The translations under genes were made by a program, and so were the position numbers. Below the pieces are notes generated by a model. That model saw only the letters and a list, made by a program, of their open reading frames with translations. It was not told the origin of the DNA and ran no database searches. Below are positions 15,701 through 58,949 of a stretch of 64,000 nt of DNA, piece by piece; the first letter of the stretch is position 1; every line of letters starts with the position of its first letter. Where the stretch lies: NCBI GenBank assembly GCA_030390025.1, contig CM059431.1:155250001-155314000 (forward strand), read 5' to 3'. This DNA is from Squalus acanthias. Its lineage: Eukaryota.

Positions 15701-18700
15701 GCGCCTCCCGGGAGCCCTCCGGTGCAGGCACAGATATTTCCAGATCGCAGTCCTCCGCCCGCGTGCGGCCTGCGAAAGGAATTTCTGGGCCACTGTGTTT
15801 TTGGGGTGATCTCCATTCATATATTTGACAGTTCTTCCTGTCAAGTGTAAGAATGCAGTTTACCTACTTTGATTGGATCCCCATAGCCCACATGATCCCA
15901 GGCACCCTGCAATCTGCCTGTGCCTCTGGGATAATAGGGCCCAGCGCAAGTGGAGATTGGAGAGGCCCAGGATCGGAATCGCGTGCGTCCCGGGATCCCT
16001 AAGGTAAGGGCGTAGATTTATCCAGATTGCAGACCTGCGCACCCGGGATTCCTGCGATCGAAAAAACAGGCCATTAACTATGAGGAGTTCATTATCAAGC
16101 ACAAGTGGTGGGTCACGAATTGAGGAAGCGATATAATGAAAAAATTGAGTCATTTTAGCGAGGGTATCAGAGATATGGATGAGTTTATATATCTAAAGTA
16201 TAGAAGTGCTGTACGGGTGGAAGAGGGAGTGTGCTATCTGCCAGTATCCAGAACGTGAGATAGATGGGTACGTTTCCAGAACAACAGGGAAGGAATGAGT
16301 ATTGGATCCATTTCTGCAAACGGATAACGGATATCTGAGAAGCAATGATATCATTAGAATTCAGAAGAACAGTAAATCAAAGAAATATATATGTACAAGA
16401 TAACCAATTTCTACAAATCAAGAACACACTAGCCCAGATATATTGGGACGGAATGGATCAGATAATTCCGTCGGGAAGCAATACGAAGGTACCAAGTAGG
16501 AAATGATTGCGATACGATATATAGGAATTACACGATAATAAAACGAGTGGAGCACATACAAGAATTATTTGCATGTGCATAGAAAAGGAAATGAAAAGTA
16601 GATTTACAAATTGAATCTAGGGGGTTGATTATATAAATCAAATCAAAGAAACATAGAGGTTAACGAGCAGAAAGTTAAACGTTGACAGTTTACGAATTTG
16701 GTGATTGGCATGAGACAGTATTCGGGACAATGATCACATTTCATAAACACTTCAAATAAAATAGAAACTCATAAGACAGGACTATTCAGGTATTCAAAGC
16801 AAATGTTTCATATAGAAGATGAAGGATTGACTGATAAGCTTGTGCTGCTGTTTCGATGAATGATACTTGAAATGAACGGAAGTCTAATTCCAATCAATGT
16901 TAAAGAAATACGGACGCGTGTAACACGAGCCGACCATTCGCTATCAGCACCTGTCATGCAACTGGCCGATTCCAATTTCACCCGCATTGTTTTAGAATCT
17001 GTGCAGTTTGAGTTTCTAAAAGCACGTTGTGAGCTTTCCAGAGCATTGCTGTTACTAACAACAAATAATGCTTCATTTTGCACGAACCATATTCCTGAAA
17101 TTTGACTTTTCCCCTTTTATTTGGCACTTATCAATTTTCATATCAGTTGAGAAAATTCAGCTTCTCTCGGTGACTCAACGCTAGTCCTCTCTATCTCTGC
17201 AACATCCTCCAGCCCTACAATCCTCCGTGATCTCTGTGCTCATCAAATTCTGAACCATTGCGCAACCCTGATTCTCTTCACGCCACCACTAGTCGCCGTG
17301 CGTTGTGCTGCCTCGGTCCTAAACTCTGGAATTAACTCTGTAATCCTCTTCGGCCGTGTGCCATTCTCTGCTCTTTAGAGACGCTCCTTATAACTTATCA
17401 CGTTGACATAGATTTTGGTCACCTGATTGTGAGCTTTTCTATTCATTCCTCCCATAAAGAGAGGGAGAAACAAAAGCGACGTCTCTTATCTGATTTTGTA
17501 AAATACTTTGTTCAATATGATTGCAATATTTTTTTAGGAAATCAGTACACTTGCTGAAAGTCAGCGCAGAAACGATGCTTCCCAATGCATTTTCGATACC
17601 GTGCTGGAAAAGGGAGCTCGGGGAGAAAGAACAATGTGGAACATATTTCTTCAACTGCAGAATTCAAAACCCAAACTGAAAGCGACATTGTCAGAGATAC
17701 AGAACAGAGATACAGGGACAAAACATGATCTAGAAGGTAGGCGATGTCAAAATCTAATTGCAAAAGATCTCGTTTACTTTCAGAGTAAGAGAGTTCATTA
17801 TTTATGTCGAGGAACTTATTGTAAGTTAATGTACAGGAGGATGAAATTCTAATTGACGGGACACACAATGGCCGGATCACATTTGCCGACAGTTACACAC
17901 ACGCCCGATATTCAGCTCAATTCAAGTTTATTCTCGCGCAACATATAAAAGGCGATGGATGCGATACGGCCTGTGTTCTGTCCTCGCCGAAAAACGGCCA
18001 GTATTGCATCTGCTGCCCGTTGTTCGCTTTTTCCTATGTTCCCTTCCTTTGACTCCAATAAAATTGCAGAGGCTGCGCTGTGCCCACCCAGAGCCGGTAA
18101 TCAGGGAAATCTCTCAAATCAGGGAAACTGATGTAATCTTCGGCTCTTTCACAGTAGTTGCGCTCTTGAATTCCCCACTAAAAGTTTGACTGAAAGGGAA
18201 GGGTGTAACTGGATTGCAAAAGCGTATTGAATTCTTAACAAATGTGATAGCCAGAAAATCTAATTTTAATTTTGTGCAGAGACAACTTTATTCATTTGAA
18301 TAAAAATTAACATTATTCTGAAAATGTAATAATTTTAAAAGATTTATCCTCCTTATTTCTGCTTTGCATTTTCCCCATGTTAGAGCCCCAATATTTGTTT
18401 CGTTCGCTCAATCATTTTTTTTAAATGTTAGAAGTTTAACAGCTTCACCACTTCCTTGTTCGCTGTATGTGAGAATTAAGCGTTTTGATTGGATGCTTAG
18501 ACAGCCTGTTGACTTCACAGCAGCTTGCACTCGGGATTCCCAATGATGTTCCGTTGATTTGAATTACACTTCGGAAAACCTGATTGCGAGATCTTTGTGT
18601 CAATCTTACTTTGTGGCCGCAGCAAATGCCTTTGCTTCGCGCTGACCGCTAATTCCGGGCCGTTCTTTATTAAGTATTTCTCAGGTCTTTCTGCTTCCAT

Positions 18701-21700
18701 CGATAGGCATTTTAGAATCTGGTACATTCAATTATGATTCCTACCAGCTATTGTCATGTTTCAGATGTGGTATTTGAGATTTAATTATTATTTCAATTTG
18801 ATATCAATAACTTTTTCCCAATGCTGTGTTCTTGTAATTGTTGTATTGATATCTATCAAATTTATTTTGAGTACATTTAGATTCACAGTATTTAAATTTC
18901 TCCGGTTCTTATCGCAGTTTAGTTTTCCCAAGAAAGAAGGAATGAGCTTGCATTTACTGTTACTTTCTTTAACTATCTGTGCATTATTTATTAGCTCTTT
19001 AGGCTAAAAAGTGCAAAGGGATCTGGGGGTCCTGGTGCACGAAACTCAAAAGGTTAGTATGCAGGTGCAGCAAGTGATTAAGAAGGCAAATGGAATGTTG
19101 GCTTTCATTGCTAAGGGGATAGAATATAAAAATAGGGAGGTATTGCTTCAGTTGTACAAGGTATTGGTGAGACCGCACCTGGAATACTGCATACAGTTTT
19201 GGTGTCCTTACTTAAGGAAAGACATCCTTGCTCTCGAGGCAGTGCAAAAAAGGTTCACTCGGTTAATCCCGGGGATGAGGGGGTGGTCATATGAGGAGAG
19301 GTTGGGTAGATTGGGACTCTACTCATTGGAGTTCAGAAGAATGAGAGGCGATCTTATTGAAACATATAAGATTGTGAAGGGGTTGGATCGGGTGGATGCG
19401 GGGAGGATGTTCCCGATGACGGGTGAGACGAGAACTAGGGGACATAGTCTTAGAATAAGGGGCTGCTCTTTCAAAACTGAGATGAGGAGGAACTACTTCA
19501 CTCAGAGGGTGGTAGGTCCATGGAATATGCTGCCACAAAAAGCTGTAGAAGCTACAACATTAATTAAATTTAAAACAGAAATAGACAATTTCCTAGAAGT
19601 AAAGGGCATTAAGGGTTACGGGGAGCGGGCAGGAATTTGGACATGAGTCTAGGTTCGGATCGGTCATGGCCCTGTGGGTAGTGGAGCGGGCCCAGGGACT
19701 GTGTAGCCTGATTCTGCTCCTATTTCGTGTGTGCAATTCTGTTAGATGCAGGAGATGGTTCTGTGATAGATAGTAGATTGGCGGTTAGGATCAGATCAGC
19801 CATGATCTTATTGAATGGCGGAGCAGGCTCGAGGGGCCGATTGGCCTACTCCTGCTCCTATTTCTTATGTTCTTATGTAAAAGCGACAGTCACGACTATT
19901 TTAATTGCTCAGCAGCATCTGGTGATCCCAAGCAATACATTTCGAATGGATTCTCAGATCACCGTCCGCAACCATCATATTTTAATTTTTTGGATATATG
20001 ATAACATATGAATATTTGCTCGTGATTTAGATACGCTTTTGTGAGGTTTAGACACGATTCCTTAAACGACTTTTGGGCACTGCCAGATAGAATCTCCAGA
20101 GCTCGACTGCTTCAATTCATCAGTTCACCCTCATTTCCACTTATCCATAATCCCATTCGTCAGTGACCTACATTCACTTGCTATCCCAGACAATTTGTGA
20201 AAGACTCCTGCTCATCTACAATTCCCTTTACGGTCTCGAGCGTCTTAATTTTACAGTCATCTTCAAAAACCCTCTTTTTTTCTGGTCCATCCTCTCCCTT
20301 TGCTGTGGTCCCCAGATTATTGGTTCCTCTGCTCCGGACTCCAACAAAGTCGTCAGCACCACTGTCTGGAATCCGTTGCCTTGGGCTTCCACTCTTTACT
20401 TCCTACTTACTTTAAACAACCTCCACATGTTGCAAGTACTAGGTCGTTTCTCTTAACTCTAAGAAAAAGAGGCAGTTTAACTCTAAATTCCTGCTGTGTG
20501 AGGCGCCATTGGACGTCTCACTGTTTGAAAGGCTCTAAAGAAAAGCTGCTGCTCTAAATGTTAGTTCAAATTATTCATTGCTTGAAACCAAACATAGTAT
20601 TGAAACCTGTTCTCATTTACACTTTTACTGAAAAATCAGATACTAAAATGTTACTAATGTTGGCGAGCTACACGGATATCCAGCTTGGAGAAATTATCGG
20701 CTGCTACCGTCAGAGACTAAAATCGTCAATTGAAGAATTCGTGGAAGCTGTTAGTCAATCGCTCTTAGATGCAAACGTGTTTTCTGAAACAATTCATAAG
20801 GTATGCTACATATATGTTGGAATTGTCTTAATGGCCTCCTAAATTTGAGACGGGTTGGTGGGAGATTTTTCAAGTCGGCTTTGCTTGTTGAACGGTTGTA
20901 TTCTCTGGCGACTTTATGTTCGCGGCGGAGGTTTGGTGGTGCGAGGACTTGATAGCCATGGGGTGAATGATAACATCCTTCCCACGGTCTACCCTTTCAC
21001 GTGCTCTTCGATTACAGCTAATATCGTCTCAAAGGAAACAGAACTTGTCGTTTTTAATGTGTTAAATAACAAGAGAACAGCATCTCATGTTATAACCATG
21101 AGTTCATCGTGGAAGATCCTCGACCCAAATACCGTCAGCTGCTCCATCAATAAAAACATTTCTGTCATACGGTCAGAATTTGGGCTGTACGCTGATGATT
21201 GCAGTGTTCAATTCCATTCCCAATTCCTCAGGTAACTAAACAGTCCATGCCCGTATGCAACTAGATCTGGTCAACATGCCAGTTATGGTGGATAATTAGC
21301 TTGTAACATTTGTGCCACATAAGTGACAGGCAAAAACCATCTGCAGAAATAGACTCTCTAATCAACTGATAATTCACTGGAAAACGTCTTGCAGTTAAGC
21401 TATTTACCTTAGCCGTATTTCTGCAGGGATTCGGGTTACTGTTGTTTCTGTAATCGGACATAAATGGCATCCTATCCAAGGAGCAATTAATCCAAATTTC
21501 AGTATTGCAAGGAACACGCCAAGACACAATGGCCCGAATATTAGACCTAATACGCGAGATTACGCACTGTGTACTCTCGCGCATTAGGTCCCGAAGTGCC
21601 GGTTTCCTGTATGCACTGCGCATGCGCGGGAAACCGGCACTTCGTGTATTGCAAAGGGGGCGGTTCCGAAGTGAACAGTGCACCTAGTTTTTTTTTCAGG

Positions 21701-27700: not shown

Positions 27701-30700
27701 ATTCTACCTGCCTATCTACTAATTTCCCTGCCACAGTTATTATTTATAATTTATAATTAACAACCTCAAAATATCTGCATTATTCTTCGTCTCACCAAGC
27801 ATTCGCAAAATTCATCCAGTCCATGGGTTACGCAACTTTAAGCCTTTACGTTCATTCTTCTGCCCAATACTCAGGGACATAACATTACCGGCATCTCCAG
27901 TCATGACAGCCATCATGTCCTATTTAAAATAAAATTCCGAGTCTCATCCATGATGTCTATCTGATCCCTTTACGAATATTTCCTGAAGTTATGTAACACA
28001 TATATTAATAAAGCATGGTGAATAAAGCTGATTAGTTGAAGGTAGCGATTGTCTGATGATGCTCTAGGAAGTTATTATATGAAGACATGGTTAATGTAAG
28101 CGCACGGCTGGGAGCATGGCGTTAATGGGCCGGTTATTCCGATCCTTACGGGTGTGTACGCGCTGGGGACATCGGAAATGCCGGTTTCAGGCATGCCAAG
28201 CGCATGCGCTGGAATCCGTAATTTCCGATCTGTCAAGAATGCTCTTGACAGATTGGACGCCTAGCCTGGAGAAGGTCCTCTGCGGACGGATAGTTCAGCT
28301 TTCTGGAGAACCCCCGCCTGCAGAAAACCATTAGAAATCGTATGCCTGGTAAAAGCAGGGCTAAGGCTTGCTTTTACTATGTTGTGGGTTTAAATTCCAT
28401 TCATATATTTGTCAGGTCTTCCTGTCAAATGTGTGAAGGGAGATTCCCTTCTCTGATTGGCTCCCTACGTAATCCCAGGGACGCTGCGAACCGCCTGCGC
28501 CTCTGGGATACGTTGGCCCTGCGCACCGGAAGTTCGGAGAGACCAAGCAACGGAACTCTGCGCCTCCCGGGACCCTTCCGGTCCAGGCACAGATTTTTCA
28601 AGATCGCAGTCGTCCGCCCACGGGCGGCCTGCGAAAGGAATTTCTGGGCCACTATGTTTTTGGGGTGATCTCCATTCATATATTTGAAAGGTCTTCCTGT
28701 CAAGTGTATGAATGCAGTTCCCCTACATTGATTGGCTCCCCATGGCCCACATGATCCCAGGCACCCTGTAATCTGCCTGTGCCTCTGGGATAATAGGGCC
28801 CTGCGCGAAGCGGAGATTGGAGAGGCCCAGGATCGGAATCGTGTGCGTCCCGGGATCCCGAAGGTAAGGGCGTAGATTATTATAGATTGCAGAACTGCGG
28901 ATCCGGGATTCCTGCGATCGAAAAACAAGGCCATTAACTATGGGGAGTTCATTTTCATTCACAAGTAGTAGGTCACGAATTGAGGAAGAGATATATTGAA
29001 AAAATTTAGACATATTAGCGAGGGTATCAGAGATATGGGCGACTTAAAATATCTAAAGTATTGAAGTGATGTACCGGTGGAAGAGGTAGTGTGCTATCTG
29101 CCACGTATCCAGGACGTGAGATAGATGGGTACGTTTGCAGAACAACAGGGAAGGAATGAGTATTGGATCCATTACTGCAAACGGATAACGGATATCTAAG
29201 AAGCAATGATATCATTAGAATTCAGAAGAACAGTAAATCAAAGCAATATATATGTACAGGATAACCAATTTCAACAAATCAAGAACACACTAGCCCAGAT
29301 ATATTGGGACGGAATGGATCAGTTAATTCCGTCGGGAAGCAATACGAAGGAACCAAGTAGGAAATGATTGCGATACGATATATAGGAATTACACGATAAT
29401 AAAACGGGTGGAGCACATACAAGAATTACTTGGATGTGCATAGAAAAAGAAATGAAATGTAGATTTACAAATTGAATGTAGGGGGTTGATTATATAAATC
29501 AAATCAAAGAAACTTAGAGGTTAACGAGCAGAAGGTAAAACGTTGACAGTTTAAGAATTTGGTGATTGGCATGAGACAGTATTCGGGACAATGATCACAT
29601 TTCATAAACACTTCAATTAAAATAGTTACTCATAAGACAGGACTATTCATGTATTCAAAGCAAATGGTTCATACAGAAGATGAAGGATTGACTGATAAGC
29701 TTGTGCTGCTATTTCGATGAATGATGCTTGAAATGAACGGAATTCTATTTGCAATCAATGGTAAAGAAATACGGACGCGTGTAACACGAGCCGCCCATTC
29801 GCTGTCAGCACCTGTCATGCGACTGGCCGATTCCAATTTCACCCGCATTGTTTTACAATCTGTGCAGTTTGAGTTTCTAAAAGCACATTGTGAGCTTTCC
29901 AGAGCATTGCTGTTACTAACAACAAATAATGCTTCATTTTGCACGAACCATATTCCTGAAATCTGACTTTTCCCCTTTTATTTGGCACTTAACATTTTTT
30001 CATATCAGTTGAGAAAATTCAGCTTCCCTCGGTGACTGAACGCTGGTCCTCTCTATCTCTGCAACATCCTCCAGCCCTACACTCCTCCGTGATCTCTGTG
30101 CTCATCAAATTCTGAACCATTGCGCTACCCCGATTCTCTGCACGCCTCGATTGGTAGTGCTGCCTCGGTCCTAAACTCTGGAATTTACTCTGTAATCCTC
30201 TTCGGCCGTCTGCCATTCTCTGCTCTTTAGAGACGCTCCTTATAACTTATCACGTTGACATAGATTTTGGTCACCTCATTGTGAGCTTTTCTATTCATTC
30301 CTCCCATAAAGAGAGGGAGAAACAAAACCGACGTTTCTTTGCTGATTTTGTAAATTACTTTGTTCAATATGATTGCAATATTTTTTTAGGAAATCAGTAC
30401 ACTTGCTGAAAGTCAGCGCAGAAACGATGCTTCCCAACGCATTTTCGATACCGTGCTGGAAAAGGGAGCTCGGGGAGAAAGAACAATGTGGAACATATTT
30501 CTTCAACTGCAGAATACAAAACCCAAACTGAAAGCGACATTGTCAGAGATACAGAACAGAGGTACAGGGACAAAACATGATCTAGAAGGTAGGCGATGTC
30601 AAAATCTAATTGCAAAAGATCTCGTTTACTTTCAGAGTAAGAGAGTTCATTATTTATGTCGAGGAACTTATTTTAATTTAATGTCCAGGAGGATGAAATT

Positions 30701-33700
30701 CTAATTGTCGTGGACACACAGTGGCCGGATCACATTTGCCGACAGTTACACACACGCCCGATATTCAGCTCAATTCAAGTTTATTCGCGCGCAACATATA
30801 ATAGGCGATGGATGCGATACGGCCTGTGTTTTGTCCTCGGCGAAAAATGGCAGGTATTGCATCTGCTGCCCGTTGTTCGCTCGGTCCTATGTTCCCATCC
30901 TTTGACTCCAATAAAATTGCAGAGGCTCCGCTGTGCCCACCCAGAGCCGGTAATCAGTGAAATCTCTCAAATCAGGGAAGCTGATTTAATCTTCGGCTCT
31001 TTCACAGTAATTGCGCTCTTGAATTCCCCACTAAAAGTTTGACTGAAAGGGAAGGGTGTAACTGGATTGCAACAGCGTATTGAATTCTAAACAAATGTGA
31101 TGGCCAGAAAATCTAATTTAAATTTTGTGCAGAGACAACTTTATTCATTTGAATAAAAATTAACATTATTCTGAAAATGTAATTATTTTAAAGGATTTTT
31201 CCTCCTTATTTCTGCTTTGCATTTTCCCCATGTTAGAGCCCCAATATTTGTTTCGTTAGCTCAATCATTTTTTCAAATGTTAGAAGTTTAACAGCTTATT
31301 CACTTCCTTGTTCGCTGTCTGTGAGAATTCTGCGTTTTGGTTGAATGCTTCGACAGCCTGTTGACTTCACATCAGCTTGTACTCGGGAATCCCAATGATG
31401 CTCCGTTGATTTGAATTACACTTCGGAAAACCTGATTGCGAGATCTTCGTGTCAAGCTTACTTTGTGGCCGCAGCAAATGCCTTTGCTTCGCGCTGACCG
31501 CTAATTCCGGCCGTTCTTTATTTATTATCTCTCAGGTTTTTCTACTTCCATCGATAGGCATTTTAGAATCAGTTACATTCAATTATGATTCCTACCAGCT
31601 ATTGTTATGTTTCAGATGTGGTATTTGAGATTTAATTATTCATTCAATTTGATATCAATAACTTTTTCCCAATGGTGTGTTCTTGTAATTGTTGTATTGA
31701 TATCTATCAAATTTATTTTGAGTATATTTTGATTCACAGTATTTCAATTTCTCCGGTCCGTATCGCAGTTTAGTTTTCCCAAGAAAGAAGGAATGAGCTT
31801 GCATTTACTGTTACTTTCTTTAACTATCTGTGCATTATTTATTAGCTCTTTAAGCTAACAAGCGACAGTCACGACTATTTCTAATTGATCAGCAGCATCT
31901 GGTGATTCCAAGCAATACATTTCGAATGGATTCTCAGATCACCGTCCGCAACCATCATATTTTAATTTTCTGGATATATTCTAACATATGAATATTTTCT
32001 CGTGATTTAGATACGTTTTTGTGAGGTTTAGACTCGATTCCTTAAACGACTTTTGGGCACTGCCAGATAGAATCCCCAGAGCTCGACTGCTTCAATTCAT
32101 CAGTTCACCCTCATTTCCACTTATCCATAATCCCGTTCGTCGGTGACCGACATACACTTGCTATCCCAGACAATTTGTGAAAGACTCCTACTCATCTACA
32201 ATTCCCTTTAGGGTCTGGAGCGTCTTAATTTTACAGTCTTCTTCATAAACCCTCTTTTATTTCTGGTCCATCCTCTCCCTTTGCTGTGGTCCCCAGATTA
32301 TTGCTTCCTCTGCTCCGGACTCCAACAAAGTCGTTAGCAACACTGTCTGGAATCCGTTGCCTTGGGCTTCCACTCTTTAATTCCTACTTACTTTAAACAA
32401 CCTCCACATGTTGCAAGATCTAGGTCGTTTCTCTTAACTCTACGAAAAAGAGGCAGCTTTAACTCTAAATTCCTGCTCTGTGCGGCGCCATTGGCCGTCT
32501 CACTGTTTGAAAGGCTCTAAAGAAAAGCTGCTGCTCTAAATGTTAGTTCAAATTATTCATTGCTTCAAAGCAAACATAGTATTGTAACCTGTTCTCATTT
32601 ACACTTTTACAGAAAATTCAGATACTAAAATGTTACTAATGTTGGCGAGCTACACGGATATCCAGCTTGGAAGAATTATCGGCTGCTACCGTCAGAGACT
32701 AGAATCGTCAATTGAAGAATTCGTGGAAGCTGTTAGTCAATCGCTCTTAGATACAAACGTGTTTACTGAAACAATTCATAAGGTATGCTACATATATGTT
32801 GGAATTGTCTAAATGGCCTCCTAAATTTGAGACGGGTTGGTGAGAGATTGTTCAAGTCGGTCCGGAACGGCATGGCTTTGCTGGTTTAAAGGTTGTATTC
32901 TCTGGCGTCTTTATGTTCGCGGCGTAGGTGTGGTGGTGCGAGGACTTTATAGCCATGGGGTGAATGATAACAACCTTCTCACGGCCCACCCTTTTACGTG
33001 CTCTTATATTACAGCTAATATTGTCTCAAAGGAAACAGAACTTGTCGTTTTTACTGCGATAAATAATAAGAGAACAGCATCTCATGTTATAAACATGAGT
33101 TCATCGTGGAAGAAATCTCGACCCAAATATCGTCAGCTGCATCATCAATTAATTTTTTTGTGTCATACGGTCAGAATTTGGCCTGTACACTGATGATTGC
33201 AGTGTTCAATTCCATTCCCAATTCCTCAGGTAACTAAACAGTCCATGCCCGTATGCAACTAGATCTGGTCAATATGCCTGTTTTGGTGGATAATTAGCAA
33301 GTAACATTTGTGCCGCATAAGTGACAGGCAAAAACCCTCTGCAGAAAGAGACTCTCTAATCAACTGATAATTCACTGGAAAACATCTTGCAGTTAAGCTA
33401 TTTACCTTGGCCGTATTTCTGCAGGGATTCGGGTTACTGTTGTGTCTGTAATCGGACATGAATGGCATCCTATCCAAGGAGCAATTAATTCAAATTTCAG
33501 GATTTCAACGAGCCCGCCAAGACAGAATGGCTCGTATTTTCCGATGCCTACGTGTGAGTACGCGCTGTGTACACACCCGTAGGGACATCGGTAATGCCGG
33601 TTTCAGGCATGCAAAGCGCTTTCGCTGAAAATCGCCATTTCCGATCTGTCAAGAATCATCTTGACTGATCGGACTCTTGCCCCAGAGAAGGGCCTCTGCG

Positions 33701-36700: not shown

Positions 36701-39700
36701 GAAATACGGACGCGTGTAACACGAGCCGAACATTCGCTATCAGCACCTGTCATGCGACTGGCCGATACCAATTTAACCCGCATTGCTTTACAATCTGAGC
36801 AGTTTTAGTTTCTAAAAGCACATTTTTGGACTGTGGGAGGAAACCGGAGCACCCGGAGGAAACCCACGGAGACCCGGGTTCGAATCTGACCTCGGGTGAC
36901 TGTCTGTGTGGAGTTTGCACATTCTCCCCGTGTCTGCGTGGGTTTCCTCCGGGTGCTCCGGTTTCCTCCCACAGTCCAAAAATGTGCGGGTTAGGTTGAT
37001 TTGGCTATGATAAATTGACCCTTAGTGTTAGGGGGGGATTAAATATGTGGGGTTATGGGGATAGGATGGGATATGTTAGGGGGAATTAAATACGTGGGGT
37101 TACGGGGGTAGGGTGGGATATGTGTACTGTGGAGATTAAAGCAGGGACAGGGTACTGGATTTGGATGATCAGCCATGATCGTATTGAATGGTGGAGCAGG
37201 CTCGATGGGCCGAATGGCCTACTCCTGCTCCTAGATTCTATGTTTCTATGTTTCTATGTTGTGAGCTTTCCAGAACATTGCTGTTACTTACAACAAATAA
37301 TGGTTCATTTTGCACGAACCATATTCCTGAAATCTGACTTTTCCCCTTTTATTTGGCACTTAACATTTTTTCATATCAGTTGAGAAAATTCAGCTTCCAT
37401 CGGTGACTCAACGCTGGACCTCTCTATCTCTGAAACATCCTCCAGCCCTACAATCCTCCGTGATCTCTGTGCTCATCAAATTCTGAACCATTGCGCAACC
37501 CCGATTCTCTTCACGCCTCGATTGGTAGCCGTGCGTTGTGCTGCCTCGGTCCTAAACTCTGTAATTAACTCTGTAATCCTCTCCAGCCGTCTGCCATTCT
37601 CTGCTCTTTAGAGACGCTCCTTATAAATTATCTCGTTGACATAGATTTTGGTCACCTCATTGTGAGCTTTTCTATTCATTCCTCCCATAAAGAGAGGGAG
37701 AAACAAAACCGACGTTTCTTTGCTGATTTTGTAAAATACTTTGTTTAATATGATTGCAATATTTTTTTAGGAAATCAGTACACTTGCTGAAAGTCAGCGC
37801 AGAAACGATGCTTCCCAACGCATTTTCGATACCGCGCTGGAAAAGGGAGCTCGGGGAGAAAGAACAATGTGGAACATATTTCTTCAACTGCAGAATACAA
37901 AACCCAAACTGAAAGCGACTTTGTCAGAGATAGAGAACAGAGGTACAGGGACAAAAGATGATCTAGAAGGTAGGCGATTTCAAAATCTAATTGCAAAAGA
38001 TCTCGTTTACTTTCAGATAGTTCATTATTTATGTCGAGGAACTTATTTTAAGTTAATGTCCAGGAGGATGAAATTCTAATTATCGGGGACACACAATGGC
38101 CGGATCACATTCGCCGACAGTTTCACACACGCCCGATATTCAGATCAATTCAAGTTTATTCGCGCGCAACATATAATAGGCGATGGATGCGATAAGGACT
38201 GTGTTTTTTTCCTCGGCGAAAAATTGCAGGTATTGCATCTGCTGCACGTTCTTCGCTCGGTCCTATGTTCCCTTCCTTTGACTGCAATGAAATTTCAGAG
38301 GCTGCGCTGTGCCCAGACAGAGCCGGTAATCAGGGAAATCTCTCAAATCAGGGAAACTGATGTAATCTTCGGCTCTTTCACGGTAATTGCGCTGTTGAAT
38401 TCCCCACTAAAAGTTTTACTGAAAGGGAAGGGTGTAACTAGATTGCAAAAGCGTATTTAATTCTAAACAAATGTGACTGCCAGAAAATCTAATTTTAATT
38501 TTGTGCAGAGACAACTTTATTCATTTAAATAAAAATTAACATTATTCTGAGAATGTAATTATTTTAAAAGATTTTTCAACCTTATTTCTGCTTTGCATTT
38601 TCCGCATGTTAGAGCCCCAATATTTGTATCGTTCGCTGAATCATTTTGTTAAATGTTAGAAGTTTAACAGCTTATTCACTTCCTTGTTCGCTGTCTGTGA
38701 GAATTCTGCGTTTTGGTTGGATGCTTAGACAGCCTGTTGACTTCACAGCAGCTTGCACTCGGGATTCCCAATGATGCTCCGTTGATTTGAATTACACATC
38801 CGAAAACCTGATTGCGAGATCTTTGTGTCAAGCTTACTTTGTGGCCGCAGCAAATGCCTTTGCTTCGCGCTGATCGCTAATTCCGGGCCGTTATTTATTT
38901 AGTATCTCTCAGGCCTTTCTACTTCCATCGATAGGCATTTTAGAATCAGTTACAATCAATTATGATTCCTACCAGCTATTGTCATGTTTCAGATGTGGTA
39001 TTTGGGATTTAGTTATTATTTAAATTTGATATCAATAACTTTTTTCCAATCGTGTGTTCTTGTAATTGTTGTACTGATATCTATCAAATTTACTTTGAGT
39101 ACATTTAGATTCACAGTATTTCAATTTCTCCGGTCCGTATCGCAGTTTAGTTTTCCCAAGATAGAAGGAATGAGCTTGCATTTACTGTTACTTTCTTTAA
39201 CTATCTGTGCATTATTTATTAGCTCTTTAGGCTAACAAGCGACAGTCACGACTATTTCTAATTGCTCAGCAGCATCTGGTGATTCCAAGCAATAAATTTC
39301 GAATGGATTCTCAGATCACCGTCCGCAACCATCATATTTTAATTTTCTGGATATATGATAACATATGAATATTTGCTCGTGATTTAGATACGCTTTTGTG
39401 ACGTTTAGACGCGATTCCTTAAACGACTTTTGGGCACTGCCAGATAGAATCTCCAGAGCTCGACTGCTTCAATTCATCAATTCACCCTCATTTCCACTTA
39501 TCGCTAATCCCAATCGTCGGTGACCGACATTCACTTGCTGTCCCAGACAATTTGTGAAAGACTCCTGCTCATCTACAATTCCCTTTACGGTCTCGAGCGT
39601 CTTAATTTTATAGTCTTCTTCAGAAACACTCTTTTATTTCTGGTCTATCCTCTCCCTTTGCTGTTTTCCCCAGATTATTGGTTCCTCTGCTCCGGACTCC

Positions 39701-42700
39701 AACAAAGTCGTCAGCACCACTGGTTGGAATCCGTTGCCTTGGGCTTCCACTCTTTACTTCCTACTTACTTTAAACAACCTCCACATGTTGCAAGATCTAG
39801 GTCGTTTCTCTTAACTCTACGAAAAAGAGGCAGCTTAAACTCTAAATTCCTGCTCTGAGAGGCGCCATTGGCCGTCTCACTGTTTGAAAGGCTCTAAAGA
39901 AAAGCTGCTGCTCTAAATGTAAGTTCAAATTATTCATTGCTTCAAAGCAGACATAGAATTTTAACCTGTTCTCATTTACACTTTTACAGAAAATTCAGAT
40001 ACTAAAATGTTACTAATGTTGGCGAGATACACGGATATCCAGCTTGGAAGAATTATCGGCTGCTACCGTCAGAGACTAGAATCGTCAATTGAAGAATTCG
40101 TGGAAGCTGTTAGTCAATTGCTCTTAGATGCAAACGTGTTTACTGAAACAATTCATAAGGTATGCTACATATATGTTGGAATTTTCTAAATGGCCTCATA
40201 AATTTGAGACGGGATGATGGGAGATTGTTCATAGAAACGTAGAAACATCGAAAATAGGTGCAGGAGTAGACCATTCGGTCCTTCGAGCCTGCACCGCCAT
40301 TTAATGCGTTCATGGCTGAACATGCTACCTCAGTACCCCATACCTGCTTTCTCGCCTTACCCCTTGATCCCCCTAATTGTGAGTATTATATCTAACTCCC
40401 TTTTGAATATATTTAGCGAACTGCACTCAACAACTTTCTGTGGTAGAGAATTCCACAGATTCACCTCTCTCTGGCTGAAGAAGTTGCTCCTCATCTCAGT
40501 CTTAAATGGCTTCCCCTTTATCCTTAGACTGTGATCCCTGCTTTTAGTTTTCCCTAACATTGGAAACATTCTGCCCGCATCTAATTTGTCTAACCCAGTC
40601 AGGATTTTAAACGTCTCTATAAGATCCCCCCTCATTCTTCTGAATTCCAGAGGATACAAGTTCAGTTGATCCAGTCTTTCTTGATATGTCAGTCTGGCCA
40701 TCCCAGGAATCAATCTAGTGAACCTTCGTTGCACTCCCTCAATAGCAAGAATGTCCTTCCTCAAGTTAGGAGACCAAAACTGCTCACAATACTCCAGGTG
40801 TGGCCTCACCAAGGCCCTGTACAACTGTAGCATCACCTCCCTACTCCTGTACTCAAATCCCCTTGCTATGAAGGCCATCATGCCATTTGCTTTCTTGACT
40901 GCCTGCTGCACTTGCCTTCCCACCTTCAGTGACTGATGTACCATGACGCCCAGGTCTCGTTGCACCTCCCCTTTCCCTAATCTGCCACCATTCAGGTATT
41001 GGTCTGCCTCCCTATTTTTACCACCAAAGTGGATAACCTCACATTTATCCACATTGTACTTCATCTGCCATACATTTGCCCATTCACCCAACCTGTCCAA
41101 GTCACTCTGTAGCATCCTAGCATCCTCCTCATTGTTCACACTGGCTCCCAATTTAGTGTCATCCGCAAATTTGGAGATATTACAATTAATCCCTTCTTCC
41201 AAATCATTAATATATAATGTAAACAGCTGGGGCCCCAGCACCAAACCCTGCGGTAACCCACTGGTCACTGCCTGCAATTCTTAAAAGTGCCAATTTACTC
41301 CTACTCTTTGTTTCCTGTGTGCCAACCAGTTCTCAATCCACGTCAACACATTACCCCCAATCCCATGTGCTTTAACTTTGCACACCAATCTCTTGTGTGG
41401 GACCTTGTCGAAGGCCTTCTGAAAGTCCAAATACACCACATCTACTGGTTTCCCCCCCGTCCACCCTATTGGAAACATCCTCACAAAATACCAGAAGATT
41501 TGTCAAGCATGATTTCCCTTTCACAAATCCATGCTGACTTGGACCTATAATGTCGCCACTTTCCAAATGGTCTGTTATGACATCTTTAACAATTGATTCC
41601 ATCATTTTACCCACCACCGATGTCAGGTTGACCGGTCTATAATTCCCTGCTTTCTCACTGCCTCCTTTTTTAAAAAGAGGGGTTACATTAGCCACCCCCC
41701 ACTCCTTCGGAACTGATCCAGAGTCTAAGGAATGTTGGAAAATGATCGTCAATGCATCCACTATTTCCAAGGCCACCTCCTTAAGTACTCTGGGATGCAG
41801 ACCATCAGGCCCTGGGGATTTATCAGCCTTCAGTCCCATCAATTTCCCCAACATCTTTTCCCGACTGATAAGGATTTCCCTCAGCTCCTCCCTCTTATCA
41901 GATCCTTTGATCTCTTTTATTTCCGGAAGGTTGTTTGTGTCCTCCACAGTAAACACCGAACGAAAGTACTTGTTCAATTGATCCGCCATTTCTTTGTTCC
42001 CCATTATGAATTCCCCTGTATCTGACTGCAGGGGACCTACGTTTGTTTTTACTAACCTCTTTCTTATTACATATTTATAGAAGCTTTTGCAGTCTGTTTT
42101 AATGTTCTCCGCAAGCTTCCTTTCATATTTTATTTTCCATGCCCAAATCAAACCCTTCATCCTCCTCTGCTGAGTTTTAAAGTTCTCCCAGTCCCCGGGT
42201 TTGCTGCTACTTCTGGCCAATTTGTATGCCACTTCCTTGCTTTTAATACTATCCCTGATTTCCCTTGTTAGCCATGGTTGAGCCACATTCCCTTTTTTAT
42301 TTTTACGCCAGACAGGGATGTACAATTGCTGTAGTTCATCCATGCGATCTCTAAATGTCCACCATTGCCCTTCCACTGATAACCCCTTAAATATCGCTTG
42401 CCAATCTAACCTCGCCAATTCACGCCTCATACCCTCAAAGTTGCCCTTATTTAAGTTCTGCACCATGTTCTCTGAATTAACTGTTTCCTTCTCCATCCTA
42501 ATGTAGAACTACACCTTACTATGGTCACTCTTCCCCAAGGGGCCTCGCACCACAAGATTGCTGATTAGTCCTTCCTCATTACACACCACCCAGTCCAGGA
42601 TGGCCTCCCCTCTAGTTGGTTCCTCAACATATTGGTTTAGGAAACCATCCCTTAACCACTCCAGGAAATCCTCCTCCACCGTATTGCTTCCTGTTTGAGT

Positions 42701-45700: not shown

Positions 45701-48700
45701 GGGAGCTTTGCGTTAATGGGCCGGATATTCCGATCCTTACGGGTGTGTACGCGCTGTGTACACAACCGTAGGGACATCGGAAATGCCGGTTTCAGGCATG
45801 CCAAGCGCATGCGCTGAAATCCGTAATTTCCGATCTGTCAAGAATGCTCTTGACAGATTGGACGCCTAGCCTGGAGAAGGTCCTCTGCGGAAGGACAGTT
45901 CCGCTTTCTGGAGAACCCCCGCCTGCAGAAAACCATTATAAATCGTATGTCTGCTATAAGCAGGGCTAAGGCTTGCTTTTCTTATGTTTTGGGGGTGATT
46001 TCCATTCATATATTGGACAGGACTTCCTGTCAAATGTATGAAGGGTGATTCCCTTCTCTGATTGGCTCCCTACGTGATCCCAGGGACGCTGCGAACTGCC
46101 TGCGCCTCTGGGATACGTGGGCCCTGCGATTCCAGATCGCAGTCCTCCGCCCGCGGATGGCCTGCGAAACGAATTCCTGGGCCAATATCTTTTTGGGGTG
46201 ATCTCCATTCATATATTTGACAGGTCTTCCTGTCAAATGTATGAATGCAGTTTCCCTACTTTGATTGGATCCCCATAGCCCACATGATCCCATGCACCCT
46301 GTAATCTGCCTGTGCCATTGGGATAATAGGGACCTGCGCAATTGGAGATTGGAGAGGACCAGGATCGGAATCGTGTGCGTACCGGGATCCCGAAGGTAAG
46401 GGCGTAGATTTTTCCAGATTGCAGAGCTGCGCACCCGGGATTCCTGCGATCGAAAAAACTGGCCATTAACTATGAGGAGTTCATTATCATGCACAAGTGG
46501 TGGGTCACGAATTGAGGATGCGATATATTGAAACAATGGAGACATTTTAGCGAGTGTATCAGAGATATGGATGACTTTAAATATCTAAAGTATAGAATTG
46601 ATCTACGGGTGAAGAGGGAATGTGCTATCTGCCACGTATCCAGGACGTGAGATAGATGGATACGTTTCCAGATCAACAGGGAAGGAATGAGTATTGGATC
46701 CATTTCTGCAAACGGATAACGGATATCTAAGAAGCAATGATATCATTAGAATTCAGAAGAACAGTAAATCAACGCAATATATTTGTACAGGATAACCAAT
46801 TTCCACAAATCAAGAACACACTAGCCCAGATATATTGGGACGGAATAGAGCAGATAATTCCTTCGGGAAGCAATACGAAGATACCAAGTAGGAAATGATT
46901 GCGATACCATCTATAGGAATTACACGACAATAAAAGGAGTGGTGCACATACAAGAATTATTTGGATGTGCATAGAAAAGGAATTTAAAAGTAAATTTACA
47001 ACTTGAATGTAGGGGGTTGATTATATAAATCAAATCAAAGAAACATAGAGGTTAACAAGCAGAAAGTAAAACGTTGACAGTTTAATAATTTGGTGATTGG
47101 CATGAGACAGTATTCGGGAAATGATCACATTTCATAAAAACTTCGAATAAAATAGTTTCTCATAAGACAGGACTATTCAGGTATTCAAAGCAAATGGTTC
47201 ATATAGAAGATGAAGGTTTGACTGATAAGCTTGTGCTACTGTTTAGATAAATGATACTTGAAATGAACGGAAATCTAATTGCAATCCATGGTAAAGAAAT
47301 ACGGACGCGTGTAACACGAGCCGCCCATTCGCTATCAGCACCTGTCATGCGACTGGCCGATTCCAATTTCACCCGCATTGTTTTGCAATCTGTGCAGTTT
47401 GAGTTTCTAAAAGCACTTTGTGAGCTTTCCAGAACATTGCTACTACTAACAACAAATAATGCTGCATTTTGTACGAACCATATTCCTGAAATCTGACTTT
47501 TCCCCTTTTATTTGGCACTGAACAATTTTTCATATCATTTGATAAAATTCAGCTTTCCTCGGTTACTCAACGCTGCTCCTCTCTATCTCTGCAACATCCT
47601 CCAGCCCTACAATCCTCCGTGATCTCTGTGCTCATCAAATTCTGAACCATTGCGCAACCCCGATTCTCTTTACGCCACTATTGGTAGCCGTGCGTTGTGC
47701 TGCCTCGGTCCAAAGCTCTGGAATTAACTCTGTAATCCTCCCCGGCCGTCTGCCATTCTCTTCTCTTTAGAAACGCTCCTTATAACTTATGGCAATGATA
47801 TAGATTTTGGTCAACTGTTTGTGAGCTTTTCTATTCATTCCTCCCATAAAGAGAGGGAGAAACAAAACCGACGTTTCTTAGCTGATTTTGTAAAATACTT
47901 TGTTCAATATGATTGCAATATGTTTTTAGGAAATCAGTACACTTGCTGAAAGTACGCGCATAAACAATGCATCCCAACGCATTTTCGATATCTTGCTGGA
48001 AAAGGGAGCTCGGGGAGAAAGAACAATGCGGAACATATTTCTTCAACTGCAGAATACAAAACCCAAACTGAAAGCGACATTGTCAGAGATAAAGAACAGA
48101 GATACAGGGACAAAACATGATCTAGAAGGTAGGCGATGTCAAAATCTAATTGCAAAAGATCGTGTTTACTTTCAGAGTAAGAGAGTTCATTGTTTATGTC
48201 GAGGAACTTATTTTAAGTTGATGTCCAGGAGGATGAAATTCTAATTTTCGGGATCACATTTGCCGACAGTTACACACACGCCCCATATTCAGCTCAATTC
48301 AAGTTTATTCGCGCGGAACATATAATAGGCGATGGATGCGATACGGCCTGTGTTCTGTCCTCGCCGAAAAACGGCCGGTATTGCATTTGCTGCACGTTGT
48401 TCGCTCGGTCCTATGTTCCCTTCCTTTGACTCCAATAAAATTGCAGAGGCTGCGCTGTGCCCACCCAGAGCCGGTAATCAGGGAAATCTCTCAAATCAGG
48501 GAAACTGATGTAATCTTCGGCTCTTTCACGGTAATTGCGCTCTTGAATTCCCCACTAAAAGTTTGACTGAAAGGGAAGGGTGCAACTGGATTGCAACAGC
48601 GTATTGAATTCTAAACAGATGTGATGGCCAGAAAATCTAATTTTAATTTAGTGCAGAGGCAACTTTATTCATTTAAATAAAAATTAACATTATTCTGAAA

Positions 48701-51700
48701 ATGTAATTATTTTAAAAGATTTTTCCTCCTTATTTCTGCTTTGCATTTTCCCCCTGTTAGAGCCCCAATATTTGTTTCGTTCGCTGAATCATTTTTTTTT
48801 TAAATTAGAAGTTTAACAGCGTATTCACTTCTTTGTTCGCTGTCTGTGAGAATTCTGCGTTTTGGTTGGATGCTTAGACAGCCTGTTGACTTCACAGCAG
48901 CTTGCACTCGGGATTCCCAATGATGCTCCGTTTATTTGAATTACACTTCGGAAAACCTGATTGCGAGATCTTTGTTTCAAGCTTACTTTGTGGCCGCAGC
49001 AAATGCCTTTGCTTCGCGCTGACCGCTAATTCCGGCCCGTTCTTTATTTAGTATCTCTGAGGTTTTTCTACTTCCATCGATAGGCATTTTAGAATCAGGT
49101 ACATTCAATTATGATTCCTAACAGCTATTGTCATGATTCAGATGTGGTATTTGAGATTTAGTCATTATTTCAATTTGCTATCAATAACTTTTTCCCAATC
49201 GTGTGTTCTTGTAATTGTTGTATTGATATCTATCAAATTTATTTTGAGTACATTTAGATTCACAGTATTTCAATTTCTCCGGTCCGTATCGCAGTTTAGT
49301 TTTCCCAAGATAGAAGGAATGAGCTTGCATTTACTGTTACTTTCTTTAACTATCTGCGCATTATTTATTAACTCTTTAGGCTAACAAGCGACAGTTACGA
49401 GTCTTTCTAATTGCTCAGCAGCATCTGGTGATTCCAAGCAATAAATTTCGAATGGATTCTCAGATCACCGTCCGCAATGATCATATTTTAAATTTCTGGA
49501 TATATGATAACATATGAATATTTGCTCGTGATTTAGATGCGCTTTTGTGAGGTTTAGACTCGATTCCTCAAACGACTTTTGGGCACTGCCAGAGCTCGAC
49601 TGCTTCAATTCATCAGTTCACCCTCATTTCCACTTATCCATAATCCCATTCGTCGGTGACCGACATTCACTTGCTGTCCCAGACAATTTGTGAAAGACTC
49701 CTACTCATCTACAATTCACTTTACAGTCTCGAGCGTCTTAATTTTACAGTCTTCTTCAAAAACCCACTTTTATTTCTGATCCATCCTCTCCCTTTGCTGT
49801 GGTTCCCAGATTATTGGTTCCTCTGCTCCGGACTCCAACAAAGTAGTTAGCACCACTGTCTGGAATCCGTTGCCTTGGGCTTCCACTCTTTACTTCCTAC
49901 TTACTGCTATTCTTCGAAACATTACATGCTTTTATTCTCAAGTTGACACCATCCTTTACTTTCTTACATATTCACGGATGGTTCATCTTTCTCTTAGAAT
50001 CTTTTTTTCTCTGAGTGTTATGAAACAACAGCAGCTTTTCGAATTGTTTGAGACTATTTGGACTGTCAATGAATACTTGAAAATCAAATCTCAAACATAT
50101 TCTATAATTTACAGAGATTGACGATACTACAATAATGGACGAACAAGGCAAGATAATCGTCACGTTTGCAGTCTTAGTTGCAATACTGCTGGGAACCGCA
50201 GGAGTTCTGGTGACGTGTTGTTGGCAAAACCGGAAAAATCGCGGTAAGATTACACCGCCGGCAGTAAAGATGCAGGAAATACAAATAGTGAAATAATCAG
50301 TTGCATTTTTGGTGGAGAAAAAGAAATACACTACACACTTTGTTATTCTCTCCCTAAATTATCCACCTCTACGTCCCCTGGTAATCATTAAACTTATGCT
50401 CAAAAACCTACTTTTTTGACTGCACTTCATCTACATCTTCTTGAACCCTTATTATAATTTTCGTTGTCCCGGATGTGTGCGTTCTTGCATCAGTAAAACT
50501 TCCTTTATGTGCCTTGGAATATTTATTTTCCTCGTTAAAGACACCGTACAAATGCAAGTTGTTGATGATGAGGTTTTGTCTTTATTAATAGAGATACCTC
50601 TCACGCCTTTCTCCGACCCGACTCCCGCAAATCCCTCTGAGTTTTATAGTGATGTACGTTCAGTTCTTTAATTATACCAGCTACGGTCATGTGTCGGCTA
50701 AATTATTGATGACTGCGTGATTATTTTCTATTCATATCGCAAACTTTTTTCCCAAAATTATTTCCTTATTACTCGGTGCAATAATATCCACAAAAATTAG
50801 TGTGATTGCAATTGAGTTCACAATATTTCTATTTCACTTGTTAACCCGATCACCGTTTCCTTTCGCTGTTCAATGGTATGTCTTGTACTTTTGAGCACCC
50901 GCTTGATATTGGAGTTAAGGACAATAAATGAATGTAACATTCATCAATCGATGGATTTCGAGTCGGACGCCCCCGTAAACTGCCAACGCCGCATCCCTGC
51001 CAATAAAAGGAAGAGAACTCTTTTATTATCTGCTAAATTAATTTCAGGTAAATCACAGAAGGATGCCGGTTAAGTTAGCCACGTGAACACGGTGGCATAG
51101 TGGTTAGCACTGGTGCCTCACAGCGCCAGGGACCCGGGTTCGAATCTGACCTCGGGTGACTGTCTGTGTGGAGTTTGCACATTCTCCCCGTGTCTGCGTG
51201 GGTTTCCTCCGGGTGCTCCGGTTTCCTCCCACAGTCAAAAATGTGCGAGTTAGGTTGATTTGGCTATGATAAATTGACCCTTAGTGTTAGGGGGGGATTA
51301 AATATGTGGGGTTATGGGGATAGGATGGGATATGCCAGGGGTAATTAAATACGTGGGGTTACGGGGGTAGGGTGGGATATGTTTACTGTGGGGATTAAAG
51401 CAGGGATAGGGTATTGGATTTGGATGATCAGCCATGATCGTATTCAATGGTGGAGCAGGCTCGACGGGTCGAATGGCCTACTCCTGCTCCTTGTTTCTAT
51501 GTCAAGAGGAAGTATCTTTGTCGGTGGGGGGAATAGAGGGAATAACGAAATACATGTGAGCCATAAGGAGTTAGTAAAGCATGGGGAGGCAGAATTAACA
51601 AAAAAATGAAATAGGCAGATGCCCGGATGAAGTAGAGAACGATGCGAGTAAAGTATGGAGTGCGAAATGTGAATTACAGACGATTACATCGGAGATACCT

Positions 51701-52293: not shown

Positions 52294-52435
52294 CACACGG
52301 ACAATGCCACAGCCCATAGAGAGCAGAGAGATCACATCTAGAAATATATTGTGTGTGGATAGATATCATAGTCCTAAACTACCAGAATTTAATATCAAAA
52401 TTCAGCACATCCAAAATATTAAACAAAAATCGGTG

Positions 52436-55648: not shown

Positions 55649-58600
55649 TATATGTTTGCCAAGAGTGTGGTTCGGCCTCAGGCAGATGTTAAGGAGAGGG
55701 ATGGAGTCGGTGGCGGGAATTAAAACAATATCTTAGCAATATTTGACTGGAGAACATTTCTGCTCATTCACAAATGGATGTCGGACAAGCAGTCTGACAA
55801 TTTAGAGACCGTGGAGGGGTCGAGAGAAGTGGCGGTGATGTAGAGCTGGGTGTCGTCAGCGTATAATGTGGGAACTGACGCTGTGTTTTCCGATGATGTC
55901 GTCAAGGGGCAGCATGTAGATGAGGAATAGCAGCGGGCCAAGGATAGATTCTTGTGGGACACCAGACGTAACCATGTGGGAGCGGAAAGAGAAGTCATTC
56001 CAGGTGTGTCTCTGGCTACGACAGATAGGAATGGAACCAGACGAGTGCAGCCCCACCCACCCCCCACCCCACAGCTGTACGACGGTGGAAAGGCGCTGGA
56101 GGACTGTGGAGTGGTCAACCGTGTCAAAGGCTGATGAGAATTTGAGAAGGACGTGGAGGGATGTTTTTTCTTTGTCAAAGTGGCAAACGGTGTCAGTTGT
56201 GAATTCGATGAGAGCCGTTTCGGTACTGTGGCAATGGCGGAAACCTGATTGGTGGGATTTAAACATGGAGTTCCGGGAAAGATGGGCATGGATTTGGGAG
56301 GTTACAACATGTTCAAGGACTTTGGAGCGGAAAGGGAGGTAGGAAATGGGGCGATAGATTGCAAGGACGGAGGAGTCGAGGGTTGTTATTTTGAGGAGAG
56401 TGGTGATGATGGCAGGTTTGAAGGAGAGGGTCACAGTACCTGAGGAGAGAGAACCGTTAACAATGTCAGCTAAGAAAGGAGCCAGACAAGGAAGTTGAGT
56501 GTTCAGCAGTTTGCTGGGAATAGGGTCGAGGGAGCAGGACGTGGGTCTCATATGAGCACGGCGAAGTCAGGAGCGGAGATTGGAGAGAAATTGGAGAAAA
56601 ATGCCAGTTCAGGGGTGGTGCAGGGGGGAGACTTAGTGGAAGTTTGGCCTGGTGGGCTAAGGGAAGGAAGAGAAGTGGCAGAGGCAGCTGATCGTAGGGT
56701 GTCAATCTTAGAAACAAAGAAGTTGATGAGCTCCACGCTCTTGTTATTTGAAGTGAGAGTGGAGGAGACAGGGAATAGCGCGTATAAGAAGCTGGTTAGC
56801 CGTGGAGAATAGAAGCCAGTGTTTAGCTTTGCATTCCAATAATGATTCTGGAATAGTGAGCATTGTTGGCAGACGAGAGCAAGAACCCATAATGCTTTAT
56901 GTGGTCCAGCCAGATGTGATGGCGAAAGACTAAACCAGTTGTCCGCCATATCTGTTCAAGTCTGCGTTTCTTGGACTTAAGGGAGCTAAGATTAGACCCA
57001 TACCTGTTGAAACAGCCAGGGTGAGACAGTGTAATTGATTTAATAGGGACTACGGCATCGAAGGTGGTGGTGAGGGTGTGGTTGAACAGATCGGTAGCTG
57101 CAGAAATGTTGTGGTGAATGGAGGGACAAAGGCTGTTTTTTGGGATTTCATAAGTGCAGTTGTAAGAGAGTTGGGAGAGAGTTTCTTTTCCAGGGGAGGA
57201 AACAGATTGTAGTAGGGTTTGGGGAGAAAGTGGAGGTGGGTGGAGAGTGACAGAAGCAAATGGTCGGAGAAGGCTTTATCTGCAATTGACACGATGTGTG
57301 TAGCGAGGCCACGAGAGATGGTAAGGTCGAGGGTGTGGCCCTGAATATTGTTTTGGGGGTTTACATGGAGGGAGACATTAAGGGAGTTTGCAGGGCAGTG
57401 AACTCAGAGGAGAGAGAGCATCATGAATTGAGATGAAGGTTGAAATCACCGAGGATGAGAAGTCGGTCGGTGCAGATGCTGAGGGAGGAGTTCAGTGAAG
57501 CTATCTCGGTGATAAAATTAAATGTTACTTGGGTGGGGGATAGAGAACGAGAATTTTAAATGTGGTGAGAGTTGTGGAATAATGTGTGATGCTCAAAGGA
57601 GGATAAAGTGGTGGAGGAGTAGGGAGACAGACGAAGGTGTGATTTGGTGATAAGAGCCACACTGTCGCCATGGCTGTCTTGGCTGGGCAAGTGGTGGAAG
57701 GTATAGCCAGGTGGGGAGGCTTCATTTAAGGGTAAGGTGTCATCACCCCTCAGCCACGTTTCCATCAGGGCCATGATGTCGATGCAATCATCCATGATAA
57801 GCTCATGGATGGCAAGGACCTTGTTCGATGGCGAATGGACATTCTGGAGAGAAATGGGGAGAGGTTCGGTGATGGATAACGCATTGCCAGTGTCCACAGG
57901 TTTAGCGCTGGGAGTGGTGAGTTGGACGGGAAGGAGATTGGCAAGGTTAGCAATCAGCGTGCGGGCTGGGCGGGAAGGTCGGTGAAAGAGTAGGATAATA
58001 CATTTGGGGTTGCTGCTCGTAAGGAGGCAGCAACGAATTCCACCGTGGGCCGTTCGGAGAATGCAATGGCAGGCAGAGAGGAAAGCTGTACACTTAGCAA
58101 AGAGGGTTTCAAACCTGGGAAGTCAGCAGGAGATTAGGAAGGTCGAAGAGTAATGAAGGGTTGGTGTAGGGATTTGGAAGAGCAGTGTATCCCAGAGAGG
58201 AGAGATGAAAGGAGGCATAATGAGAGCAGAGAGCAATCAGGGAGGGATAGAGAGTTAAGGTAAAGGAGAGAAAAGAGTGGAAATAGAAGTGAACAGCTCG
58301 TATCCGCAGCGCCAGCCAACATGTACACGCAGGATCAGCAGAACTCACTGTTTTCATTGGGCAGCTGTCTTTGTCACACCTGATGTGACATGTTGATCAT
58401 AACCCTCGGGAAATGTTCACACCCAGAGCTAACAGCTGTTGTACTGATGGGGGAGGAGGGACTTGATATCATGTTTAACATGGCAGCGTTCTCCTTCTCA
58501 TTTTAATACTTCCATCTAACACTCCTGTTAATATTATAATGTTTACAGAGCATCAGAATATTGTAACGCCTGTCCCGACCATGGCTGAAGGTCCAAACAG

Positions 58601-58949
58601 GGGAGAAGATCGTGCATCTTCAAAAAGGATAAGGAAAGACACATGTAGGTTCAGAAAATGCTTTAACATATAATACCTGTCCTTAAAAATGGTCCAGATC
58701 ACGTTCAAGAACCTGTAGCTCACACAGGAAGAGGGAACAGGACAGGGGCTGAGTAGAAAAAGCGATGTGAGTGACCATCTAGAGGGGCATCACAGTCACA
58801 GGTGGAGGGTGCCTCTGATTACTGGAACTGTTCAATACATACCTGGTATTGGGGACTGTAAGGTGGACAGAGACAGTGACTCAGAGGAGAGTCTTCCTGT
58901 GCAACAGTATGGTAACAGGGAGCAGGAGGCCACCATAGTGGGATGAGAG

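Follow-up and report, generated by a model that had tools for sequence, protein, structure and literature searches.

A transmembrane exon stands behind a recently amplified array of CARD exons in the window, i.e., the whole 64,000-nucleotide stretch of the Squalus acanthias genome analyzed here, and is best explained as the membrane exon of an NLR-derived shark gene. The protein would be of type I, with its CARD array in the lumen or outside the cell, a reading to which we assign a probability of about 0.57. Two options had been left by the first-pass annotation, namely death folds placed outside the cell by a type I topology, or a C-terminal anchor as in MAVS that leaves the array cytosolic. 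The type I option has gained support from homologous models that combine signal-like starts, CARDs and the same helix, and on these sequence comparisons it is favored over the MAVS-like anchor, which is now disfavored.

The transmembrane exon (50115..50243, plus strand) is 129 nt long, has phase 1-1 and an open frame, and is bounded by a CAG acceptor behind an AT-rich tract and a G/GTAAGA donor. It encodes an acidic N-flank (net -3 over 12 residues), a helix, a Cys-Cys pair and a basic C-flank (+3 over the 7 residues past the pair). The coordinates, phase and flank character given by the first-pass annotation hold, while its 23-residue hydrophobic segment shortens to 21 residues ahead of the Cys pair and reaches 23 when the pair is included (GRAVY 2.61). 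Within the 601-residue spliced frame of the window, the best 19-mer hydropathy is 2.71, located in this helix, and the runner-up is 1.29; the window-encoded part of the protein thus has one strong helix with a positive-inside C-flank. Hydrophobicity by itself is not beyond chance in the AT-rich DNA of the window, where the segment ties for fourth among 51 hydrophobic clusters in six frames. The acceptor score is modest (1.2, with true B exons ranging from -0.7 to 1.3) on a rough scale of approximate splice-site weights. The exon is nevertheless more than a chance reading frame, because it sits at the breakpoint of the tandem unit and is homologous to membrane segments of other sharks.

The array ahead of the helix exon is built from a repeated unit of 123 codons, in which exon A (170 nt, phase 1-0) is followed by exon B (199 nt, phase 0-1). 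On the plus strand, exon A lies at 8759..8928, 20631..20800, 32613..32782 and 39990..40159, and exon B at 17538..17736, 30390..30588, 37771..37969 and 47930..48128, in units 1 to 4 respectively, with unit 4 being the membrane-proximal one. A further exon B at 6535..6733 belongs to a unit whose exon A is located before the window. When the four A copies, five B copies and the helix exon are spliced together (4.5 units), 601 codons are obtained with no stops. The tandem unit is present in about five copies of 91-95% identity, and the CARD units are recent copies that are 90-95% alike. Two near-invariant residues are missing, a Trp from the membrane-proximal exon B and a Pro from the first exon B (6535..6733).

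The intron between the last exon B and the helix exon links the helix to the array. Its first 1.78 kb (48129..49905, plus strand) shares homology with the 5' part of all B-to-A introns; this homology ends at 49905, and the same breakpoint is found in the four units at 8538, 20411, 32392 and 39769. From the breakpoint to the next acceptor there are 210 nt in the case of the helix exon and 220-221 nt in the case of each exon A. The common breakpoint indicates that the amplified unit derives from the CARD preceding the helix. Judged from these intron alignments, the helix exon belongs by descent to the gene of the CARD array, and the simplest history would be an A-B-helix gene of which the A-B block was then amplified, a history that concerns descent and not the present-day use of splice junctions.

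The window is vertebrate DNA rich in reverse-transcriptase frames, which we take to be of LINE origin. Four young copies with long reverse-transcriptase frames (1-1917, 11432-13012, 23159-26165 and 40357-43132) entered the units at different points after duplication, and can be used to order the duplications. In addition, a 373-nt element occurs twice at 96% identity, inside unit 3 (36871-37243) and behind the helix exon (51131-51502).

The repeated domain is, by structure prediction, a CARD fold, and this call rests on the homologous domain of a catshark, which is 51% identical to unit 3. The AlphaFold model of the catshark domain reaches a pLDDT of 84 (27-row alignment), and nine of its ten best structure matches (VIA) either are CARD entries or contain a CARD, as judged by title or range, with Z of 9.7-10.9 and rmsd of 1.7-3.6 over 80-102 residues, although Z scores of this size can be common for helical models. 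Foldseek places CARDs in the top rows for the same domain, none with E below 0.001, and a single-sequence AlphaFold run on the basking shark model XP_078390056.1 gives a pLDDT of 41. The Pfam CARD profile (PF00619) matches none of five single exons of the window, whereas the whole catshark model XP_072354261.1 passes it (40.4 vs 23.9 bits). The first Atlas match (0.86), with CARD on 28% of its members, serves as a lead only, and Atlas has no usable match for residues 1-620 of XP_072354261.1. When exon B was compared against 1.84 billion representatives, 35 proteins were found at E up to 0.001, mostly NLRs with NACHT, and the named protein relatives of the array are all shark or ray models. A word-based protein search with exon B alone recovered none of 36 candidates, and alignment-based searches recovered 2 out of 7993 and 4 out of 7998 candidates that were scored, so the family is thinly sampled.

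Three relatives carry a helix of this kind; all are automatic gene models, and they are the only three found. The RefSeq model XP_072354261.1 of Scyliorhinus torazame (P0040, 1405 aa, annotated as an uncharacterized protein) has, in order, a start resembling a signal peptide, a stretch rich in Ser/Thr (9 of 31 residues), four CARDs, the helix, a linker, a CARD, a NACHT domain and LRRs. Its CARDs are of the same subfamily as those of the window (about 50% identity per unit), and its tandem CARDs likewise stand directly ahead of the helix, whose 42-residue segment aligns without gaps with the whole window exon (9 identical and 22 similar residues) and shares the basic C-flank. The differences are that the four CARDs on its N-side diverged long ago where those of the window are recent copies, that the protein continues into CARD-NACHT-LRR, and that the Cys pair is absent. 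The Cetorhinus maximus model XP_078390056.1 (P0005, LOC144671995, 342 aa) shares 46% identity with the last unit and the helix across 164 columns; it encodes a helix with Cys-Cys and a short tail with no NACHT, and differs from the window in having two CARDs only. In the CARD tree their partners are CARDs 3 and 4 of the catshark (support 100/99 and 99/89), thus the CARD-CARD-helix order has been kept across two shark orders. The NLRP3-like model XP_078087540.1 of Mustelus asterias (P0002, 1186 aa) shares with the window the CARD clade, a signal-peptide-like segment and a helix end of Thr-Cys-Cys plus basic residues; unlike in the window, a short outer part without CARDs precedes the helix, and three CARDs, NACHT and LRR lie behind it. 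XP_078390056.1 and the NLR model XP_078390109.1 (P0026), whose CARD falls outside the helix-family clade, have near accession numbers and may be neighbors.

Homology of the helix segment itself was evaluated with shuffles that preserve the flank/helix/flank composition. The local score of 52 between the window helix and the catshark segment is reached by none of 5000 shuffles, and the scores against the basking shark and Mustelus segments are reached by 23 and 55 of 5000, respectively. The first-pass annotation had also raised the question of whether the exon was borrowed from another receptor family; no named family fits, since every Pfam match lies below its cut-off. This removes LAX (the best match, 17.8 bits vs a cut-off of 27), CcmD and dystroglycan as sources.

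The relatives also speak to the orientation of the helix. As the NACHT domain following the catshark helix is cytosolic, the orientation would be fixed with the C-side in and the N-side out, and the charges agree: in all three relatives the N-flank is neutral or acidic and the C-flank basic. The positive-inside flank of the window exon is likewise explained by a catshark helix that precedes a cytosolic CARD-NACHT-LRR part. Hydropathy and visual inspection served to assess signal peptides. The N-termini of the three helix-bearing models are the three most hydrophobic among 33 models whichever of the three hydropathy window sizes is applied (p about 0.003), with a margin that is thin at 8 and 12 residues and clear at 10; seven of 40 models had been excluded from this comparison as unrelated matches or cluster-mates, and P0003, P0010 and P0015 were among the models set aside as unrelated matches. 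By eye, the catshark start begins with a basic N-region, which is followed by a hydrophobic core and a cleavage site of small residues. It aligns with the N-terminus of Mustelus (6 of 2000 shuffles), whereas that of the basking shark is without a clear cleavage site and aligns with neither (354 and 746 of 2000 shuffles).

Both death folds, as assembly modules, and NLRs, as sensors, are known from the cytosol, which is the normal workplace of CARDs. One alternative is a tail-anchored adaptor like MAVS or CARD19 (BinCARD), which would have no signal peptide, a cytosolic array, a helix inserted into an organelle after translation and a short basic tail. Such a protein could be produced in the window, where positively charged tails of 15 to 24 residues are possible (by read-through, or with an exon at 51048) and no NACHT exon follows the helix, and CARD19 provides a precedent for a cytosolic CARD with a C-terminal helix (PMC8997538, in the portion of that paper available). 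However, hydrophobic N-termini are found in all three helix-bearing relatives, and the helix lies at least 800 residues from the C-terminus in XP_072354261.1 and XP_078087540.1, which no tail anchor allows. MAVS and CARD19 resemble the window in having the CARD fold N-terminal to a C-terminal helix, but each has a single CARD that faces the cytosol from mitochondria (for CARD19, the available part of PMC8997538), whereas the window CARDs are of a shark NLR lineage whose relatives have signal-peptide-like starts. Highly hydrophobic tail-anchor helices favor the ER over mitochondria, although the mammalian classes are not cleanly separated by hydrophobicity (the part of PMC5450235 available), and given the high GRAVY of the window helix even a tail-anchored form would probably not be mitochondrial. 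We consider the tail anchor improbable.

Phylogenetic analysis was performed on 44 CARDs, leaving out seven unrelated or cluster-mate models, the second catshark model GCB66031.1 and partial domains. All ten CARDs of the helix-bearing models and the four window units form one clade against the 30 others (100/98), and the NACHT domains of XP_072354261.1 and XP_078087540.1 are sisters among 14 (100/99). Both results argue against random fusion of gene models. Within the clade, the free tree groups the window units with those CARDs of Mustelus that lie on the cytosolic side (96/82), where a helix is followed by three CARDs. In pairwise scores, too, the window units are as close to catshark CARD 5 as to CARDs 2 and 4. 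The grouping in the tree could be explained by a two-pass protein, in which an upstream helix as in Mustelus keeps the array cytosolic and the window helix comes second, with its short tail in the lumen. Yet the grouping involves a long branch and is not preferred by the AU test, under which joining the window units to the N-side CARDs fits equally well (p-AU 0.51). Furthermore, the intron homology derives the unit from the CARD ahead of the window helix, the basic flank would become lumenal, and each of the three relatives has one strong helix and none has two. A two-pass protein is therefore very unlikely.

Marks of passage through the secretory pathway were also considered. The window array has one N-glycosylation sequon in four domains, located in the membrane-proximal exon B, compared with five in six N-side domains of the relatives and two in 30 soluble domains. 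In XP_072354261.1 there are five sequons in the 554 residues before the helix vs eight in the 809 residues after it, i.e., no N-side excess, and no conserved Cys pair was found in the CARDs. Sequons and cysteines give no clear secretory mark on the array and do not decide its topology.

Under the type I reading, a signal exon upstream of the window would direct translocation of the array into the ER, the helix would act as the stop-transfer segment, and the basic flank and Cys pair would remain on the cytosolic side. The Cys pair is likely palmitoylated. Given the CARD-NACHT-LRR part on the cytosolic side of the catshark model, the family would likely act as a clustering receptor, in which a multivalent ligand bound by the outer CARDs would crowd the inner CARD-NACHT parts and start signaling. 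Our best guess for the ligand would be other CARD surfaces, e.g., paralogous receptors or CARD filaments from dying cells; ASC specks do leave dying cells (available part of PMC9174887). The sequence evidence concerns the layout, and ligand binding is a guess. On a broader reading, sharks may possess a family of transmembrane NLRs with CARD arrays outside and cytosolic CARD-NACHT-LRR signaling, in which a death fold serves as an ectodomain and perhaps senses the CARD filaments of dying cells, and of which the window locus would be a recently amplified member, either full-length or a decoy with a short tail.

Membrane-bound NLR-family proteins have been predicted in anthozoans (PMC3879445, PMC5094078), but the portions of those papers available describe three to five N-terminal helices before NACHT and their authors term the arrangement anthozoan-specific; the window frame and each relative have one strong helix. 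The NLRP-related NLR expansion of the whale shark (PMC8455134) is likely the wider family, with the shark and ray NLRP3-like models as soluble relatives; it is presented as one of intracellular receptors, and the accessible text of that paper mentions neither a helix nor outer CARDs. A literature search for a receptor with an outward CARD array, covering titles and abstract openings with little coverage of subscription journals, returned none. The layout is already present, unremarked, in automatic RefSeq models. The sequence comparisons make an outward CARD array likely, and this would be an undescribed receptor layout. If true, a single helix flanked by CARDs on either side would constitute a new link from an outside signal to NLR signaling in jawed vertebrates, and would raise the question of whether CARDs fold and polymerize in the secretory pathway.

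It is also conceivable that the helix exon is skipped, giving a soluble poly-CARD sensor by splicing to a downstream NLR, or that this copy is decaying, with no productive expression. Every junction between modules has phase 1, so that any module order stays in frame. The older of the two models for the locus of XP_072354261.1 (GCB66031.1, P0001) joins CARD 4 to CARD 5 and bypasses the helix, and it also lacks the signal-like start and CARD 3. A leader-type exon of a shark NLR at 58549..58644 (plus strand, 96 nt, phase 1-1, open, containing an ATG) would offer a junction for skipping. Over 21 residues it shares 57% identity with the N-terminus of shark model P0031, whose CARD belongs to the soluble clade, and for this reason it probably starts the next gene. 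The same exon is frame-compatible with the helix exon too, and in-frame splicing of the latter into a downstream NLR is possible. Neither helix skipping nor a cytosolic CARD-NACHT-LRR part behind the helix had been foreseen by the first-pass annotation.

With respect to decay, mutations have hit two of the 18 splice dinucleotides, against about 0.9 expected in the absence of selection, and amino-acid change among the copies proceeds at the neutral rate: the copies differ by 32 non-synonymous and 4 synonymous changes, where intron rates predict 31.6 and 9.5, an excess of replacement changes that is not significant (p 0.11). Both splice defects, however, have in-frame alternatives close by. In the first exon B the donor is GG where GT would be expected, and a weak GT lies in frame 27 nt upstream; in exon A of unit 2 the acceptor is TG in place of AG, and another AG lies in frame 9 nt into the exon. 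Moreover, the array is free of stops and frameshifts, with none in nine exon copies vs 3.5 expected (P about 0.03, probably an underestimate, as indel rates measured in introns exceed those of exons). The reading frame seems to be kept while the residues drift or diversify. The helix exon itself is intact with canonical splice sites, and its order with the CARDs is conserved in two other shark orders. We regard skipping or decay as rather unlikely.

Returning to the type I protein, what follows the helix exon in the window suggests a short tail. With XP_072354261.1 as a tblastn query on 49901-64000, no CARD, NACHT or LRR exon was found in the 13.7 kb behind the helix, and with 38 proteins no NACHT or LRR exon was found anywhere in the window, past which the gene may run. 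Because of this empty stretch behind the helix, the window copy most likely has a short tail, as the basking shark model does. Such copies might act as decoys or modulators that dampen signaling. The candidate tails span 15-50 residues. Read-through of the helix exon ends in a 24-residue tail with net charge +5, and the candidate exon at 51048 has a stop after 8 codons. A candidate last exon at 50592..50671 (plus strand) has a good acceptor and 25 open codons, Pro-rich and with one Tyr-x-x-Val, before its stop; it would give a 33-residue tail, and AATAAA follows at 50923 and 51002. The tail of XP_078390056.1 has no clear match to any candidate tail exon of the window.

Two groups of short repeats were observed in these regions. 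A segment about 911-926 nt after each B donor (7660, 18663, 31514, 38891 and 49040) is 67% like 50582-50863, and in three of the five copies a TAG acceptor is preserved that leads into nine open codons and a stop, with a polyA-like hexamer 388 nt further on; going by these motifs, the segment could be an alternative last exon that yields a helix-less secreted form. Behind the helix exon, 50522-50587 and 51741-51799 are two diverged copies of a short element. Both lie in open phase 1 frames with similar Met-Gln-Val and Glu-Phe-Tyr stretches, and are possibly duplicated tail exons.
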